Part shown: positions 35,302-44,815 of the stretch, piece by piece | Layout of the letters: each line of letters begins with the position of its first letter | Numbering within the stretch: position 1 is the first letter of the stretch | Sequence record: PZ386951.1 | Origin: a phage | Length of the DNA: 64,000 bases | Direction: 5' to 3' (one strand) | Position numbers and translations under genes: made by a program | The notes under the pieces: generated by a model | Told to the model about the DNA's origin: nothing | Database searches by the model: none | What the model saw: the letters and a program-made list of their open reading frames with translations, nothing else

Positions 35302-35775
35302 TTATTTGAACGATTTAACGTACTGAATAGAACCTTTACTATTCACGAAAGCGATTTTACCATTTTTATTATACATGGTAGCAGTACGCTGATAACCATA
35401 AGTTTGCTTACCAGATTGATAACCAACTAATGCAAAATTATCTTCACCCATTTTATTCTGTTTAGCACGAATGCGTTCATGACCATGTGCCATAAGAACC
35501 TTAGCATCACCAGTTGCAATGGATCGACGAGTTTTTTCATCTTCAACTGTATTAACAAAATCGTCAAATGAATCAAATTTAGCGTGAGATTTATTATACA
35601 GTTTTCCATCTACTGCATAATTATATCCCTGTACATCCATCTCAACTTCTGTACCATCATCCAGTACAGCAGTGATTTTTTGACCTTTTTTAAATTTCAA
35701 AAGATCAGTAAAAGATTCAGCAATAATTTGAGATTTAATAGCTGCTTCAGTGATAAATTCTTGATATGTTTTCAT
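35302..35775 (-). CDS. internal-protein-like protein with capsid targeting sequence
   Basis: 157 aa; N-terminus MKTYQEFITE followed by AA matches the T4 internal-protein targeting sequence and prohead-protease site. Confidence 0.55.
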   Translation of the reverse strand: MKTYQEFITEAAIKSQIIAESFTDLLKFKKGQKITAVLDDGTEVEMDVQGYNYAVDGKLYNKSHAKFDSFDDFVNTVEDEKTRRSIATGDAKVLMAHGHERIRAKQNKMGEDNFALVGYQSGKQTYGYQRTATMYNKNGKIAFVNSKGSIQYVKSFK

Positions 35776-36258: not shown

Positions 36259-36561
36259 TTATTTACCTTTAATTACTTTAGCTGCTTCGATAGCCGCTTG
36301 CTGAAGGTCATCCATAGACATACCGAATTTAGAAGCAAAGTTATCAATTTTCTTTTCGACAGCATTCAAAGGCTTGGCCTGTTTACCTTCATTAGCGCCA
36401 GGAAGAGCGAGAATACGCTCTTTGTCAATATAAAGGCTTACAAGTTTCTTACGGTCTTTATCGGACAAATCATGAAATGAATGGGCCTTTTTATTTATAG
36501 CGGCTTCTAATTTACCTGCACTCACTCGCGCTTCAGTAATAAATTCTTGATATGTTTTCAT
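36259..36561 (-). CDS. ipII: internal protein II
   Basis: 100 aa; MKTYQEFITE targeting sequence; T4 position and size. Confidence 0.85.
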   Translation of the reverse strand: MKTYQEFITEARVSAGKLEAAINKKAHSFHDLSDKDRKKLVSLYIDKERILALPGANEGKQAKPLNAVEKKIDNFASKFGMSMDDLQQAAIEAAKVIKGK

Positions 36562-36602: not shown

Positions 36603-37181
36603 TTAGGAATTACGGGCTGCATTAGCAACGGCATACGCGTACTGAACATTAGCGTCTTTAAACGTACCTTTAGAGGTATCTATTTCTGCCTTAAAGCCGC
36701 CTTTAGTCATAACATCGGCAAATTCTTTACGGAAAGCCATTGCATCAAGACCTTTCCATGATGATTTATGCTTGGCGAATTCAAGACCAGCGTAGTTGAC
36801 AGCCTTAGCTAATTTATTATCAATAACCCATTTACCAGCTTTAGGCACAAACTTCGGGCCTTTCTGTTTAGAGAACAGTTTTAAATTCCAGCGGCGAAGG
36901 TCACTGTCGGCTTTAACAAAAGCTGCGTCTAAGTTACTAGCAACAACATCTTCAATATGAGCAAATTTAAGTCCGTCAACTTCAATATTTAGATCGGTAC
37001 GCCAGCGAAGTCCTTCCCAAGCGAAGGCTTTAAAGTCGGAAGCCTTTGTAGCTAAGTACCGTTCAATAGGAGCTGTTTTAGGGTCAAAGCCGTTTCCTGA
37101 TCGGTAGGTCCACTCATCTTTGTTAATGCCTTTGGCCTTTACTACAGAAACTTCGGCAATAAATTCTTGATATGTTTTCAT
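36603..37181 (-). CDS. ipIII: internal protein III
   Basis: 192 aa; MKTYQEFIAE targeting sequence; T4 position. Confidence 0.85.
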   Translation of the reverse strand: MKTYQEFIAEVSVVKAKGINKDEWTYRSGNGFDPKTAPIERYLATKASDFKAFAWEGLRWRTDLNIEVDGLKFAHIEDVVASNLDAAFVKADSDLRRWNLKLFSKQKGPKFVPKAGKWVIDNKLAKAVNYAGLEFAKHKSSWKGLDAMAFRKEFADVMTKGGFKAEIDTSKGTFKDANVQYAYAVANAARNS

Positions 37182-39091: not shown

Positions 39092-39486
39092 CGTGATTCC
39101 TTAACAAATTTCATAATTTCATCAAATTCATACGCAGCAAGTTTAAGCTGGTGTTCCTTTTTAATCTTTTCACACTGTGCTTTCCAATCACGTACGCGTT
39201 TACGATAATGTCTTCCTTGATACCAGTATCCTACCCAATTTACAGGTACTAACAAAAGTGGAACTATTAATGGAAGAATTAGCATTAATACCAGTATTTC
39301 GCCAGAATCAATATCAGTCATAACATCTAAAACACCTCCAATAATCAATAGAATTACAAATGATATGAGTATAACAGGACCTATTAATACATCAGTAGAA
39401 ATTATCTGACGCTTTAATTCATACTTTAAGGGTTTACTTGGAAGATACATTGATGGCTTTGACATATTCTCTACATTCCTTAACAA
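39073..39486 (-). CDS. membrane protein
   Basis: 137 aa with two TM helices. Confidence 0.45.
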   Translation of the reverse strand: MLRNVENMSKPSMYLPSKPLKYELKRQIISTDVLIGPVILISFVILLIIGGVLDVMTDIDSGEILVLMLILPLIVPLLLVPVNWVGYWYQGRHYRKRVRDWKAQCEKIKKEHQLKLAAYEFDEIMKFVKESRCKSQN

Positions 39487-40042
39487 ATTTTTCTAGTAAT
39501 AAATCACTTTCAAAATTAGGATTTTCCACTAATTTATCAAAAAGATCATCAACAATATTCAAGATATTTCTTTTACTAAGAATACGTTTATTTTCATGCT
39601 TCGTTTCAGAATCAACTATAAGAGTAAAGAAATATTTCTTTCCCTGAAATTTTACTGTAGTATCAATATAGAATAAATTTGACTTTTGTAAGTTACGTTT
39701 AAACCATGCGTCACTTAAACTATAAACACCGAGATAATCAAAATCGTCGTTTAAATAACATACTGTCCATTCAGGAGAAATGAAATCAGTAAATTCAACA
39801 TCAAAATCACACGTCAATGAATGAATTGATTCAATGCTGTTAATAAGTATTCCAGGACGTATTAAAGACTTTTTACCTCTAGAAAATCTTCCAGAAAGAC
39901 TTTCATCAGTTTCATATGAAGAACCCCAATAATAATTACGTCCTTCTGCCATACGTTTAAGAGCATTTAATAATTGGTCTGGAACATCAACATGTCTTTG
40001 GAACTCTTCAAACATTGAATTGAAATCACTTTGCATTTTCAC
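39434..40042 (-). CDS. hypothetical protein
   Basis: 202-aa ORF. Confidence 0.45.
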   Translation of the reverse strand: MKMQSDFNSMFEEFQRHVDVPDQLLNALKRMAEGRNYYWGSSYETDESLSGRFSRGKKSLIRPGILINSIESIHSLTCDFDVEFTDFISPEWTVCYLNDDFDYLGVYSLSDAWFKRNLQKSNLFYIDTTVKFQGKKYFFTLIVDSETKHENKRILSKRNILNIVDDLFDKLVENPNFESDLLLEKFVKECREYVKAINVSSK

Positions 40043-40083: not shown

Positions 40084-40677
40084 TTATTTCAGAGAATTAA
40101 TATATTCCTGAACATCGGCAGAGGTAGTTTCAACCCCAGAAATATTACCATTAAAGGTTTCAACTCGAGCAAGTGTGTCTTCAATATCAACCTTAGTCAG
40201 TGCTGCAATTTCAACTACATCATCAGCAGTACTAATTCCAAGGGCATTTGCTGCACGAGTTTCACGGATATATTCCAATTTAACTGCAAGTTCTTGGCGA
40301 GCATCATCTAACTCAACTACTTTCTTGGCGATTTCAATTCGCATTTCAGCATAACCATCAGCTTTAGTAGTCAGCTGTTCAGCTGTTCGACGATATAGCA
40401 AACCGAGTTTAGCATGCATTGTTACATCTTGACCTTCGGAAAGAAGCTTGCGAATTTCACGCTCTTTTGATTCGGCCTGTCGATTCTTTTCGGCAATAAG
40501 TTCACGAATACGTTTTTCTTCATTAATAGATTTAACAGAAGCAGTTTTTAGATCTTTAATTTTATCAAGTAGCTTTGCTGCTGCAGCAGTATACTGTTCT
40601 TCAACAGATAGATTTTTAGCCATAGCAGAACCAAGTTTAGTGCGAATAAACTCAACAATTTTCTTCAGTGTGTTCAT
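40084..40677 (-). CDS. coiled-coil protein, possibly PspA/IM30-like
   Basis: 197 aa, almost entirely helical with N-terminal amphipathic helix [15 protein letters not shown]; PspA similarity is an impression only. Confidence 0.4.
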
Positions 40678-41086: not shown

Positions 41087-41116
41087 ATAGTACCATGGAA
41101 GAACAGAGATGTAAAC
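41087..41116 (-). promoter_or_regulatory. sigma70-type early promoter within a repeated cassette
   Basis: On minus strand GTTTAC, 18-nt spacer, TACTAT. Confidence 0.5.
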
Positions 41117-41250
41117 CGTTTTGTGAAAAAATTTTAAAAATTTTTAGGGAATTCTAGGGTCAGGAGGGGCAATTAAAAGGTAGGATAATATATTATAAAG
41201 GGTATAAACTAAATGATGCCTAGAGAGGCCAAGAAAGGCCTAGATACAAA

Positions 41251-41277
41251 AAATCCCTATCATTTAGATAGGGATTT
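41251..41277 (-). terminator. intrinsic terminator-like hairpin after the 187-aa ORF
   Basis: 11-bp perfect inverted repeat aaatccctatc/gatagggattt followed by a U tract on the minus transcript. Confidence 0.5.
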
Positions 41278-41281
41278 AAAA

Positions 41282-41845
41282 TTATTTACCCAGTTTAGTT
41301 ATTATAGCTTCGGCAGCAGCTTTTAGCTTAGATGCAGTGTTAATACGATTTTTAATTTCAGTATACGCATCGCCAAGAACATCAAGGCTATCTGAATAAA
41401 CACTTACACTATTGCGTTCACTATTTGAAATAGAACCTTTAGTTTTACGATCAAAATCGGTGTACACGTCTTGAAGATCGCGGGCTGCCTTCTTTGCATC
41501 ATCCAATGCATCAAGAGCTTTATTTAAAGCATTAACATATTTTTTAGTGTCAAACATATTCTTAGAAATTTTGACGGGTGCGCGTTCAGGAGTAGCTAAG
41601 GCAGATTTAGGAACCTGAGCGCCTGATGCCAGTTTCTTAGAAATTTTGAAAAATGCTTTATTGAATTTATTTTCTTGACTCATCGTAAAAGAACTATTAT
41701 CGATGTTATACATTTCAATAGCTTTAGCTTTCCACTTAAGAAAATCGCCCCGGTCTTTTGGGTCCAAGTGGAAGAATACTTTAGTAAGATCTGCTTCAGA
41801 TGGTAATTTTGCTGCTTCGGTTAAAAATTCGGCATAGGTTTTCAT
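41282..41845 (-). CDS. internal-protein-like protein with capsid targeting sequence
   Basis: 187 aa; N-terminus MKTYAEFLTE followed by AAK. Confidence 0.5.
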   Translation of the reverse strand: MKTYAEFLTEAAKLPSEADLTKVFFHLDPKDRGDFLKWKAKAIEMYNIDNSSFTMSQENKFNKAFFKISKKLASGAQVPKSALATPERAPVKISKNMFDTKKYVNALNKALDALDDAKKAARDLQDVYTDFDRKTKGSISNSERNSVSVYSDSLDVLGDAYTEIKNRINTASKLKAAAEAIITKLGK

Positions 41846-41934
41846 TTAAAATCCTTGAAATAATTTATCGGTTGGTTATTAATTATTTATTACTTTGTTA
41901 TTATCCGTAACAGCATTCTCTATGCGATTCAAAC

Positions 41935-42270
41935 TAAAAAGCCCCAACCTTTCGGTCGGGGCTAAGCCTTGCGGCAACCTTGTCGGGGTTCCACCTGCTA
42001 AGGCAAGTGTTTGTACGAAACGCCGGGATTCGAACCCGGTTATTAAGTAGTTGACGCTACTCAATATTTTTAAAAGGCCATATCTCGACCATATCCGAAC
42101 GTTCCGTCAAAAACGCTACTCGGCTTACGGCAAAGATATTTCCTCGAATCGATAATTCGGTGCGCCGTTTCTGCTGTGATGTAAGGGGGCATTAACCGAT
42201 CGTAAAGATTTGTTAATGCCAGTCCTTACCCAGGGAACATCAGTCCGACGACTTACCGGTAGCGACCCGG
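41935..42270 (-). ncRNA. structured non-coding region downstream of tRNA-Arg; candidate small stable RNAs (T4 species 1/2 analogs)
   Basis: No credible ORF; tRNA-like T-arm CCGGGTTCGAATCCCGG around 42022-42040; long perfect hairpins near 42143-42157 and 42187-42219. Confidence 0.3.
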
Positions 42271-42621: not shown

Positions 42622-43107
42622 TTATTTTATGTAATATTTATTTAAAAACTTTCTAGCTTGAGTGTGGCTAACATTTATAGCATTTGCATAATTTTTAATA
42701 AAACCTCGTTCATCCATATTAAAATTTTCTAATATTTTTAATCGTCTAGTTATCTCATCTTGACTTAAAGTACTTGCATTATTTTTAGAAATTTTTTCTA
42801 AGGACTGAACTGAGTGTTTTCGACCACTAAAATTAAAATTTTTAGATTTTGGAGGAAATCTATCATTTAGTCTGGCATCTTTTGTATTTTGATTATTGGT
42901 TGCGCAATATATGTTATTTAATGAATACGGTCCTTTATCACCAAAACGACACATGCAGTATTCATGACCCTTTCTTCCACGCTTATCATAATTTCCCGTT
43001 GATTTCCACCAATGCAACCACTCATCAAAAGTTAAATTCCATTCAATGTTTCTACGTATAGCAGAATTCCGCTGAGAAATATATTTTGCATAATCTTCTT
43101 TCATCAC
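42622..43107 (-). CDS. putative HNH-like homing endonuclease embedded in the tRNA cluster
   Basis: 161 aa; HEYCMCRFGDKGPYSLNNIYCATNNQN resembles a degenerate HNH/His-Me finger; C-terminal helix-turn-helix-like segment; sits between the two tRNA subclusters. Confidence 0.45.
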   Translation of the reverse strand: MMKEDYAKYISQRNSAIRRNIEWNLTFDEWLHWWKSTGNYDKRGRKGHEYCMCRFGDKGPYSLNNIYCATNNQNTKDARLNDRFPPKSKNFNFSGRKHSVQSLEKISKNNASTLSQDEITRRLKILENFNMDERGFIKNYANAINVSHTQARKFLNKYYIK

Positions 43108-44581: not shown

Positions 44582-44815
44582 TCATTTTTTACGAAAAATT
44601 GATTTATTTTCTGCTGCCCATTTTTCAATAACTGCAGCCGGACCAGTAACAACAATTTTATCACCGTAATCTTCTGCGGCGAGTTGACCGAAATTATCTA
44701 ATGCATCACGAAGAACTCCATGAGGCATTTCACCCATTTTATCTTTCTTGCCAGTGTAAATAAACTCAACTTTTACATCAGAAGATTCAGCGATAAATTC
44801 TTTAAACGTTTTCAT
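44582..44815 (-). CDS. internal-protein-like protein with capsid targeting sequence at the ipI locus
   Basis: 77 aa; N-terminus MKTFKEFIAE followed by SS; directly upstream of 57B as for T4 ipI; shorter than T4 IPI as recalled. Confidence 0.5.
   Translation of the reverse strand: MKTFKEFIAESSDVKVEFIYTGKKDKMGEMPHGVLRDALDNFGQLAAEDYGDKIVVTGPAAVIEKWAAENKSIFRKK

Follow-up and report, generated by a model that had tools for sequence, protein, structure and literature searches.

A putative injected internal head protein encoded between rnaC and e.8 in a T-even-type phage

The leader-tagged internal head proteins of the T-even phages, which have been recognized by their signal sequence since 1994 (cited in PMC12373910), include Ip1, Ip2, and Ip3, each of which inhibits a different type IV restriction enzyme of the GmrSD type, the opponent of IPIII being the GmrSD of ECOR17 (PMC12373910). 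In IPIII the first 10 residues suffice for encapsidation; targeting relies mainly on residues 4 and 7 and processing on residues 8 and 10, an Asp at position 10 blocking processing, and the prohead protease gp21 cleaves after L/I-x-E, a specificity first seen at a Glu-Ala bond (PMC9026906). The gene considered here lies at 41282-41845 in a 64-kb stretch of the DNA of a T4-like phage (sequence record PZ386951.1); the whole stretch is referred to as the window, position numbers refer to it, and all of the features located in it below are on the minus strand. The product of the gene, which is assigned to PHROG 2280 (E 1.4e-53), a family that has no function label, is proposed with a probability of about 0.68 to be an internal head protein of a T-even-type phage that had escaped annotation and is injected into the host, where counter-defense would be its most likely function. 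This kind of protein is well known and the proposal is unsurprising in principle; it is the family, its paralogues, and the locus that would be new.

The open reading frame (ORF), which starts as MKTYAEFLTEAAK with an ATG codon and is preceded by an AAGGA read as a Shine-Dalgarno sequence (41852-41856), encodes 187 amino acids followed by a stop codon. Codons 1-10 (41816-41845) specify a putative capsid-targeting sequence (CTS), MKTYAEFLTE, which continues with AAK and contains a predicted gp21 site at LTE/A, where the slash, here and below, marks the predicted cut. Comparison with the leader of IPIII, MKTYQEFIAE, shows that 7 of the 10 positions are identical and that the four critical ones, 4, 7, 8, and 10, all match: Tyr4 and Phe7 are the same in the two proteins, and the gp21 motif is present as L8-T9-E10/A11, with Glu and not Asp at position 10. 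In both proteins a small residue follows the predicted L/I-x-E site. The mature products would also be similar, that of the IPIII gene in the window having a mass of 20.3 kDa and an isoelectric point (pI) of 9.65 and that of the PHROG 2280 gene, with 177 residues of which 32 are Lys or Arg, a mass of 19.6 kDa and a pI of 9.54. Both are products of non-essential accessory genes, and the PHROG 2280 protein resembles the internal proteins generally in being small, basic, and patchily distributed among related phages.

A scan of every ATG-initiated ORF of at least 30 residues in the six frames of the window with the pattern MK[TS][YF]x[ED][FYW][ILVM]x[ED] gave exactly five matches, all on the minus strand. 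Besides the PHROG 2280 gene these are IpIII (36603-37181, 192 residues, PHROG 5341), IpII (36259-36561, 100 residues, PHROG 7857), IpIV (35302-35775, 157 residues, Pfam DUF7412, PHROG 3155), which has a second site, IAE/S, at residues 18-20, and IpVI (44582-44815, 77 residues, PHROG 8111). Since the probability of the motif is about 2e-7 per ORF, as we estimate from residue frequencies, the occurrence of five leader-bearing ORFs in the window is not due to chance. The other four have annotated counterparts in T4 and Yersinia phage PST and belong to PHROGs that are all named "internal virion protein", so that among the five only the gene at 41282-41845 sits in a PHROG of unknown function. Its leader codons, ACC TAT GCC GAA TTT TTA ACC GAA, differ from the ACA TAT CAA GAA TTT ATT ... 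of ipII, ipIII, and ipIV, and the resemblance is therefore held at the level of the protein and does not reflect copied DNA.

Beyond the leader, the PHROG 2280 protein differs from the described internal proteins. When the IPIII of the window was compared by hhalign with a profile of the PHROG 2280 family, the probability was 0.9%, with the leader alone aligning, and the possibility that the protein is a homologue of IPIII was rejected on this ground. No homology of the mature part was detected with the IPIII, IPII, IpIV, and IpVI families (PHROGs 5341, 7857, 3155, and 8111), the sole match to an "internal virion protein" PHROG being a weak one to PHROG 8765 (E 0.016) confined to residues 1-60. 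Similarity to the known GmrSD inhibitors Ip1-3 was likewise absent, there being no significant match to a PDB fold or profile. The solved structure of IPI*, which we take to be deposited in the PDB, would presumably have been covered by the PDB search. A Foldseek search of the PDB gave nothing significant (best E 0.65), and a subthreshold match to cytochrome b562 was set aside because it reflects only the presence of a helical bundle.

Sequence comparison indicates that the ORF is a real gene under strong purifying selection, because it is identical or nearly identical in 165 phage records and because synonymous changes dominate the differences from vB_Eco_T-01 (14 synonymous and no non-synonymous) and from Shigella phage CT01 (9 and 1, respectively); the ratio of non-synonymous to synonymous substitution rates (dN/dS) is about 0-0.03. 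The same ratio could not be used for RB69, whose copy is frameshifted. The 901-bp stretch around the gene matches 590 phage records at 90-97% identity, mostly from Escherichia, Shigella, and Yersinia tequatroviruses, and in all of the 165 records obtained by tblastn with the window protein the annotation is "hypothetical"; Shfl2, HP3, and ime09 are among the carriers of the gene.

The order of genes on the minus strand of the window is 57B, IpVI, ORFs of the tRNA.4/.3/.2 type, two blocks of transfer RNA (tRNA) genes (43567-43152 and 42612-42280), the rnaD/rnaC region with a strong terminator at its end (41963-41940), the PHROG 2280 gene, and e.8. T4 has at the same place a gene-free gap of 284 bp between rnaC and e.8. 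Relative to T4, the window contains about 690 extra bases (approximately 41248-41935), inserted directly behind the rnaC terminator's T-run and ending with a terminator and T-run of their own; the two sequences are collinear up to GGGGCTTTTT of that terminator and again from GTATCTAGGCC past the terminator of the insert, beyond which they are once more nearly identical, including the early-type promoter of e.8 just downstream (TTTACA-17-TACTAT, 41087-41115, the same sequence in T4). Alignment with the e.8-rnaC region of T4 thus defines the insert as a single-gene accessory cassette consisting of a late-promoter box, leader, ORF, and terminator. Its upstream boundary is the rnaC-type intrinsic terminator hairpin (41940-41963), which has a 10-bp stem with 7 GC pairs and a T-run and is the same as the 3' end of T4 rnaC. 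The intrinsic terminator hairpin belonging to the cassette itself (41251-41277) is regular and G+C-poor, with an 11-bp stem, a 5-nucleotide loop, and a following TTTTGT. In T6 and PST the site is empty, as in T4; the annotation of PST, which names IpIII-IpVI, comes from the laboratory responsible for describing the Ip series.

The ip loci of T4 are elsewhere, ipII and ipIII being beside gene e and ipI beside 57B, across the tRNA cluster from the site of the cassette. The proteins of the ipI locus (Ip1 and, according to the T6 and PST records, IpV/Ip5 and IpVI/Ip6) are comparable to the PHROG 2280 protein in that they are encoded by small accessory genes that are marked by the leader and swapped as cassettes among T-even phages, but their genes are found ahead of the tRNA cluster, in the interval from 57B to tRNA.4, whereas the PHROG 2280 gene is downstream of the cluster and of rnaC and precedes e.8; the PHROG 2280 family also differs in spanning many genera. 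Further Ips of the ipI locus were reportedly described by Repoila et al. (1994, EMBO J), and only that locus is believed to have been examined. The preliminary description of this DNA, made from the sequence alone, had given the gene a terminator hairpin of its own and a position corresponding to none of the T4 internal-protein loci, and both statements stand. It had also placed the gene beside the tRNA cluster, which needs a qualification: the gene is downstream of the cluster and of rnaC/rnaD, whereas the tRNA-adjacent ipI locus lies at the opposite end. As judged from these comparisons, the gene very probably represents a new family of internal head proteins at a third ip locus.

The cassette also differs from the ipIII gene in its upstream signals. 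A T4-type late-promoter-like box, AATAAATA, is located 46 nucleotides upstream of the ATG (41884-41891). At about 20 homologous loci from at least seven genera, NATAAATA is found in every case 33-46 nucleotides before the ATG, usually straight after a terminator hairpin, and takes the form TATAAATA, CATAAATA, or GATAAATA in the homologues, at -33 to -46. The motif WATAAATA occurs 18 times on the two strands of the window (128 kb of strand), which is no more than shuffled sequences give, and we estimate from this count that the chance of finding it on the right strand of the 95-nucleotide spacer is roughly 1-2%; recurrence of the box at the same distance in every homologue examined is, on this comparative evidence, not chance. 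A promoter scan of the region found no early-type promoter upstream of the gene. Early-type promoters are present at the ipIII and IpVI genes of the window, and ipIII has in addition a 5' leader in common with ipII and ipIV; the PHROG 2280 gene has neither of the two features found at ipIII. The 5' leader, atatttacatttaaaggaaacat, comprises the 23 nucleotides before the ATG and is identical in ipII, ipIII, and ipIV. Late synthesis is what a component of the prohead core needs.

The wider extent of the family is visible only through a distant homologue and a profile. Searches with the window protein alone gave only homologues of at least 90% identity, and an exhaustive search of 1.8 billion representatives gave a single distant relative, P0013 (31% identity, E 4e-6), but tblastn with P0013 matched 351 phage records and a profile search matched 46 protein clusters. 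The sources include Dhakavirus (JS98 orf135), Karamvirus, Kanagawavirus, Marfavirus, Jiaodavirus, and others, all annotated as "hypothetical"; a Foldseek search of BFVD returned the family itself, one protein of Yersinia phage fHe-Yen9-01, and nothing else. About 50 homologues were collected, with bodies 17-30% identical to that of the window protein. In every case examined, from at least seven T4-like genera, the gene follows a tRNA cluster of the same strand at a distance of 170-1400 nucleotides and, where e.8 is annotated, is just upstream of e.8. The family, the paralogues described below, and the locus are unnamed in PHROGs, Pfam, and NCBIfam and in every GenBank record retrieved, and no paper was found that mentions the leader string or the locus names of RB69 and Shfl2.

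The leader of every full-length homologue conforms to M-x-x-[FY]-x-[EDQ]-[FI]-[LI]-x-E, although in a few it is one residue short or aligns less cleanly. Examples are MKTYNEFLNE/S in JS98, MLNFKEFIAE/S in Karamvirus, MLKFKDILTE/S in Marfa, MLNFNEFITE/S in Kosakonia phage 305, MITFNEFLNE/S in P0013, and MKFKDFLTE/E in Kpn6N, and in many homologues a second site, [LIV]-x-E-[AS]-G, follows a few residues after the leader. Glu10 is invariant in an alignment of 21 sequences whose bodies are 19-28% identical to the window protein and nearly invariant in another alignment of the family. Co-variation of the leader with those of each phage's own Ip proteins was considered as a separate argument; both are of the MITF... 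type in one metagenomic contig (SRR28624380_555336), but in Karamvirus KMB19 an MLNF leader is accompanied by two MKTY leaders, and the argument was dropped.

These comparisons bear on the possibility that the protein is not packaged but is a cytoplasmic accessory protein whose resemblance to a CTS is coincidental or serves, for example, efficient translation initiation. Such an interpretation would fit with the lack of a named annotation in both sets of tblastn records and with the similarity to the known internal proteins being limited to the leader, and it should be noted that we infer the presence of the protein itself in the virion from its leader and the comparative data. However, the leader is kept, with the cleavage-site Glu invariant, in homologues whose bodies have diverged to 17-30% identity, and because its DNA differs from that of the other ip genes, selection acts on the peptide. 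The late-promoter box is present at all of the loci examined, whereas novel accessory ORFs of T4-like phages are generally expressed with the early genes (PMC1524935), the same leader is found in neighboring cassettes of the locus, and a paralogue has been detected in virions. A nonpackaged protein is accordingly regarded as distinctly improbable.

An AlphaFold model of the PHROG 2280 protein based on 21 sequences is all-helical with a mean predicted local distance difference test score (pLDDT) of 80.7; an earlier model based on four sequences was poor (pLDDT 65). Residues 1-12, corresponding to the leader, are predicted to be disordered (pLDDT <50). They are followed by a helical N-terminal domain (residues 17-73, 41627-41797, pLDDT about 72-89), in which conservation across the family is highest (RMTK, W, R32, D34, K37, and Y46-G-I), a flexible linker rich in Pro, Ala, and Lys (residues 74-100, 41546-41626, low pLDDT), which varies in length by tens of residues and is much longer in other genera, and a C-terminal domain of three helices (residues 101-186, 41288-41545, pLDDT about 86-95). 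In CT01 (L015, 1201-1689), an in-frame deletion of 25 residues between two KISK repeats removes the whole linker and leaves the remainder intact.

A paralogue of 157 residues with the leader MKSY[AT]QFLNE/AVLNE/A is encoded in vB_Eco_T-01 (L011, 2368-2841), immediately upstream of the homologue of the PHROG 2280 gene, and in fD1 (g140; L014, 7943-8416), where it is alone at the site. Its late-promoter box is a perfect TATAAATA. The linker and C-terminal domain are common to the paralogue and the PHROG 2280 protein (hhalign probability 95.5%, E 1.6e-8), but the N-terminal part is different, whereas members of the Jiaodavirus type retain the N-terminal domain and have a different C-terminal domain; the family is therefore modular. 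In Klebsiella phage ValerieMcCarty01 the family member, gp137 (L009, 3501-3677), is truncated to 58 residues, while that of the related Kpn6N is full-length, with 194 residues and another C-terminal domain.

Liquid chromatography-tandem mass spectrometry of purified fD1 particles lists the paralogue, g140, as particle-associated, whereas its neighbors g138 and g139 (e.8) are not listed (Table S3, PMC8309999). The paper on fPS-65/90 contains no proteomics. The preliminary description had recognized in the ORF, from MKTYAEFLTE and the AAK that follows, the pattern of capsid targeting and cleavage and had viewed the product as a further CTS protein distinct from IPII and IPIII, with a lysine-rich helical body, and possibly a distinct injected cargo. 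The sequence-level tests agree with this reading: the four critical IPIII positions match, the leader is kept in homologues of 20-30% identity, a late box is present, and other CTS cassettes occupy the locus in other phages. The body is as described, given its content of basic residues and the all-helical model, and of the alignments with T-even internal-protein families that had been suggested as a check, that with IPIII found only the leader in common.

The sequence of events that we propose starts with late transcription from the AATAAATA box, which is located beyond the rnaC terminator. The precursor would be pulled into the assembling prohead core by means of MKTYAEFLTE, and gp21 would cut the Glu10-Ala11 bond to produce the basic helical protein of 177 residues and 19.6 kDa with the neo-N-terminus AAKLPSEADLTK. 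This product should persist because the protein has no L/I-x-E site other than that at residues 8-10. It would then stay with the packaged DNA, be ejected alongside it into the host, and act there as a counter-defense factor as soon as infection begins. Entry into the core, cleavage by gp21, retention, and ejection are likely in view of the leader and its conservation. An anti-defense role of any sort, for which the argument is one of analogy, is given somewhat less than an even chance; it is our best guess as to function because Ip1, Ip2, and Ip3 each block a different GmrSD enzyme, and a GmrSD-type enzyme as the specific opponent of this protein, suggested by the same analogy, is unlikely.

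A CTS shows entry into the core alone, and many core proteins do not remain there once they have been cleaved (PMC9026906), so that the protein might also be cut and then leave the head or be degraded, as are the fragments of gp22, gp67, and gp68, and never be injected. Expelled core proteins are, however, cut into many fragments, whereas a single L/I-x-E site is the pattern of retained proteins, and this course of events is considered very improbable.

Several observations weigh against the proposal that the protein is an injected, probably counter-defensive, internal head protein. Its body has no match in Pfam, NCBIfam, or PDB profiles and no similarity to a known anti-defense protein. The detection of g140 is weak support, as it concerns the paralogue and as the fD1 particle list is unspecific, containing 113-137 of the 277 phage proteins, DenV, NudE, and thymidine kinase among them. 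A search of virion data for ValerieMcCarty03/04 gave no peptides of the Jiaodavirus homologue, although this is a weak test, since the homologue is truncated in the one ValerieMcCarty genome examined, that of ValerieMcCarty01. Late expression is read from the box, which opens with A and not T, the first T of the T4 late promoter TATAAATA being poorly conserved (A or T) across T4-like phages (PMC1524935). Depletion of internal L/I-x-E sites, considered as a signature of life beside gp21, was not seen in the family relative to shuffled sequences and is uninformative. The loss of the linker in CT01 and the frameshift in RB69 show that parts of the gene, or the gene, can be lost. Finally, the near-invariance of the protein within Tequatrovirus is not the rapid divergence of an arms race.

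This last point, together with the presence of the family at the same locus in at least seven genera, would suit a general better than a strain-specific role and raises the alternative that the protein is packaged and processed by gp21 but is structural, being a basic protein associated with DNA or the core that helps to assemble the head, condense the DNA, or eject it, a role of the kind once proposed for IPIII. The high pI and the Pro/Ala/Lys-rich linker are compatible with such a role, and IPIII mutants assemble heads more slowly (PMC9026906). IPIII itself, however, although formerly thought to be structural, blocks a GmrSD enzyme (PMC12373910); in addition, T4, T6, PST, and the majority of the 590 related records lack the gene, the frameshift in RB69 indicates that it is dispensable for making virions, and the swapping of N- and C-terminal domains among members of the family resembles the evolution of effectors. 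A purely structural protein is therefore unlikely, but the broad conservation, the near-invariance in Tequatrovirus, and the DNA-binding appearance of the linker keep open a general role in association with DNA, in assembly, or in ejection.

RB69, which belongs to a different genus, contains the cassette (L001, 5185-5747) with about 96% nucleotide identity, and such similarity between genera suggests recent lateral transfer. A 1-nucleotide deletion splits the RB69 copy into ORF149c and ORF148c, and it is either a pseudogene or the result of a sequencing error. The locus is found in four states, empty, with the PHROG 2280 gene, with the paralogue, or with both, and two copies of the rnaC-type terminator (TTAGCCCCGACC[G/A]AAAGGTTGGGGCTTTTT) flank the paralogue cassette in fD1 and vB_Eco_T-01, whereas T4 has one. 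These arrangements are similar to those of the promoter-early stem-loop (PeSL) elements (Arbiol 2010, Comeau 2014, PMC4122927), in which genes are gained or lost when repeated terminator-promoter modules recombine (PMC4122927): there is a variable ORF, a terminator stem-loop joined to a promoter, and a site of insertion or deletion between close relatives. PeSLs, however, have been described mainly for early regions (PMC4122927), and the stem-loop upstream of the PHROG 2280 gene is joined to a late-type NATAAATA box and not to an early sigma-70-like promoter.

T4 Alt, one of the packaged ADP-ribosyltransferases, is a further point of comparison, since it is packaged by means of an N-terminal propeptide, cut by gp21, and injected (PMC9026906), but the PHROG 2280 protein has no enzyme domain. 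In the metagenomic contig SRR28624380_555336, a gene directly downstream of a family member (L002, 2092-2526) encodes an ADP-ribosyltransferase of the ART-PolyVal/DUF3990 type (45 bits, above the Pfam cut-off), with the leader MITFKQFLNE/S, a terminator, and a CATAAATA box; judging from these features it is probably injected, and it is unrelated in size to T4 Alt. In the window itself, an ORF of 161 residues with no Pfam match (42622-43107) divides the tRNA cluster in two at the position occupied in T4 by the homing endonuclease gene segB, and the segment 41940-42275 is collinear with the rnaD and rnaC stable RNAs of T4 but has no Rfam match. The homologues of e.6 and e.5 (40084-40677 and 39434-40042) are without a CTS-like leader; their fD1 homologues, g136 and g137 (e.5, e.6), are listed as particle-associated.

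For decades the three internal proteins of T4 were unexplained; in 2025 each was found to be injected and to inhibit a different type IV restriction enzyme (PMC12373910), and every further leader-tagged protein is a candidate for a new anti-defense function. The PHROG 2280 family is present in hundreds of genomes of therapeutic-type coliphages and of Shigella, Yersinia, Klebsiella, and Enterobacter phages and is more widely conserved than Ip1-3. It is a tentative and rather doubtful suggestion that, among the families of CTS-tagged injected proteins found in the Tevenvirinae, that of PHROG 2280 and its paralogues is conserved most widely, is encoded at a third, hitherto unrecognized ip locus in cassettes with a late promoter and terminator, with shuffled N- and C-terminal domains, and acts against a widespread defense other than the GmrSD enzymes countered by Ip1-3 or directly on the incoming DNA. 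If the proteins are packaged, the family would add to those that enter the cell before phage gene expression, and the locus would be a third genomic site of cargo exchange, which would matter for predicting host range and for delivering proteins by means of the CTS.

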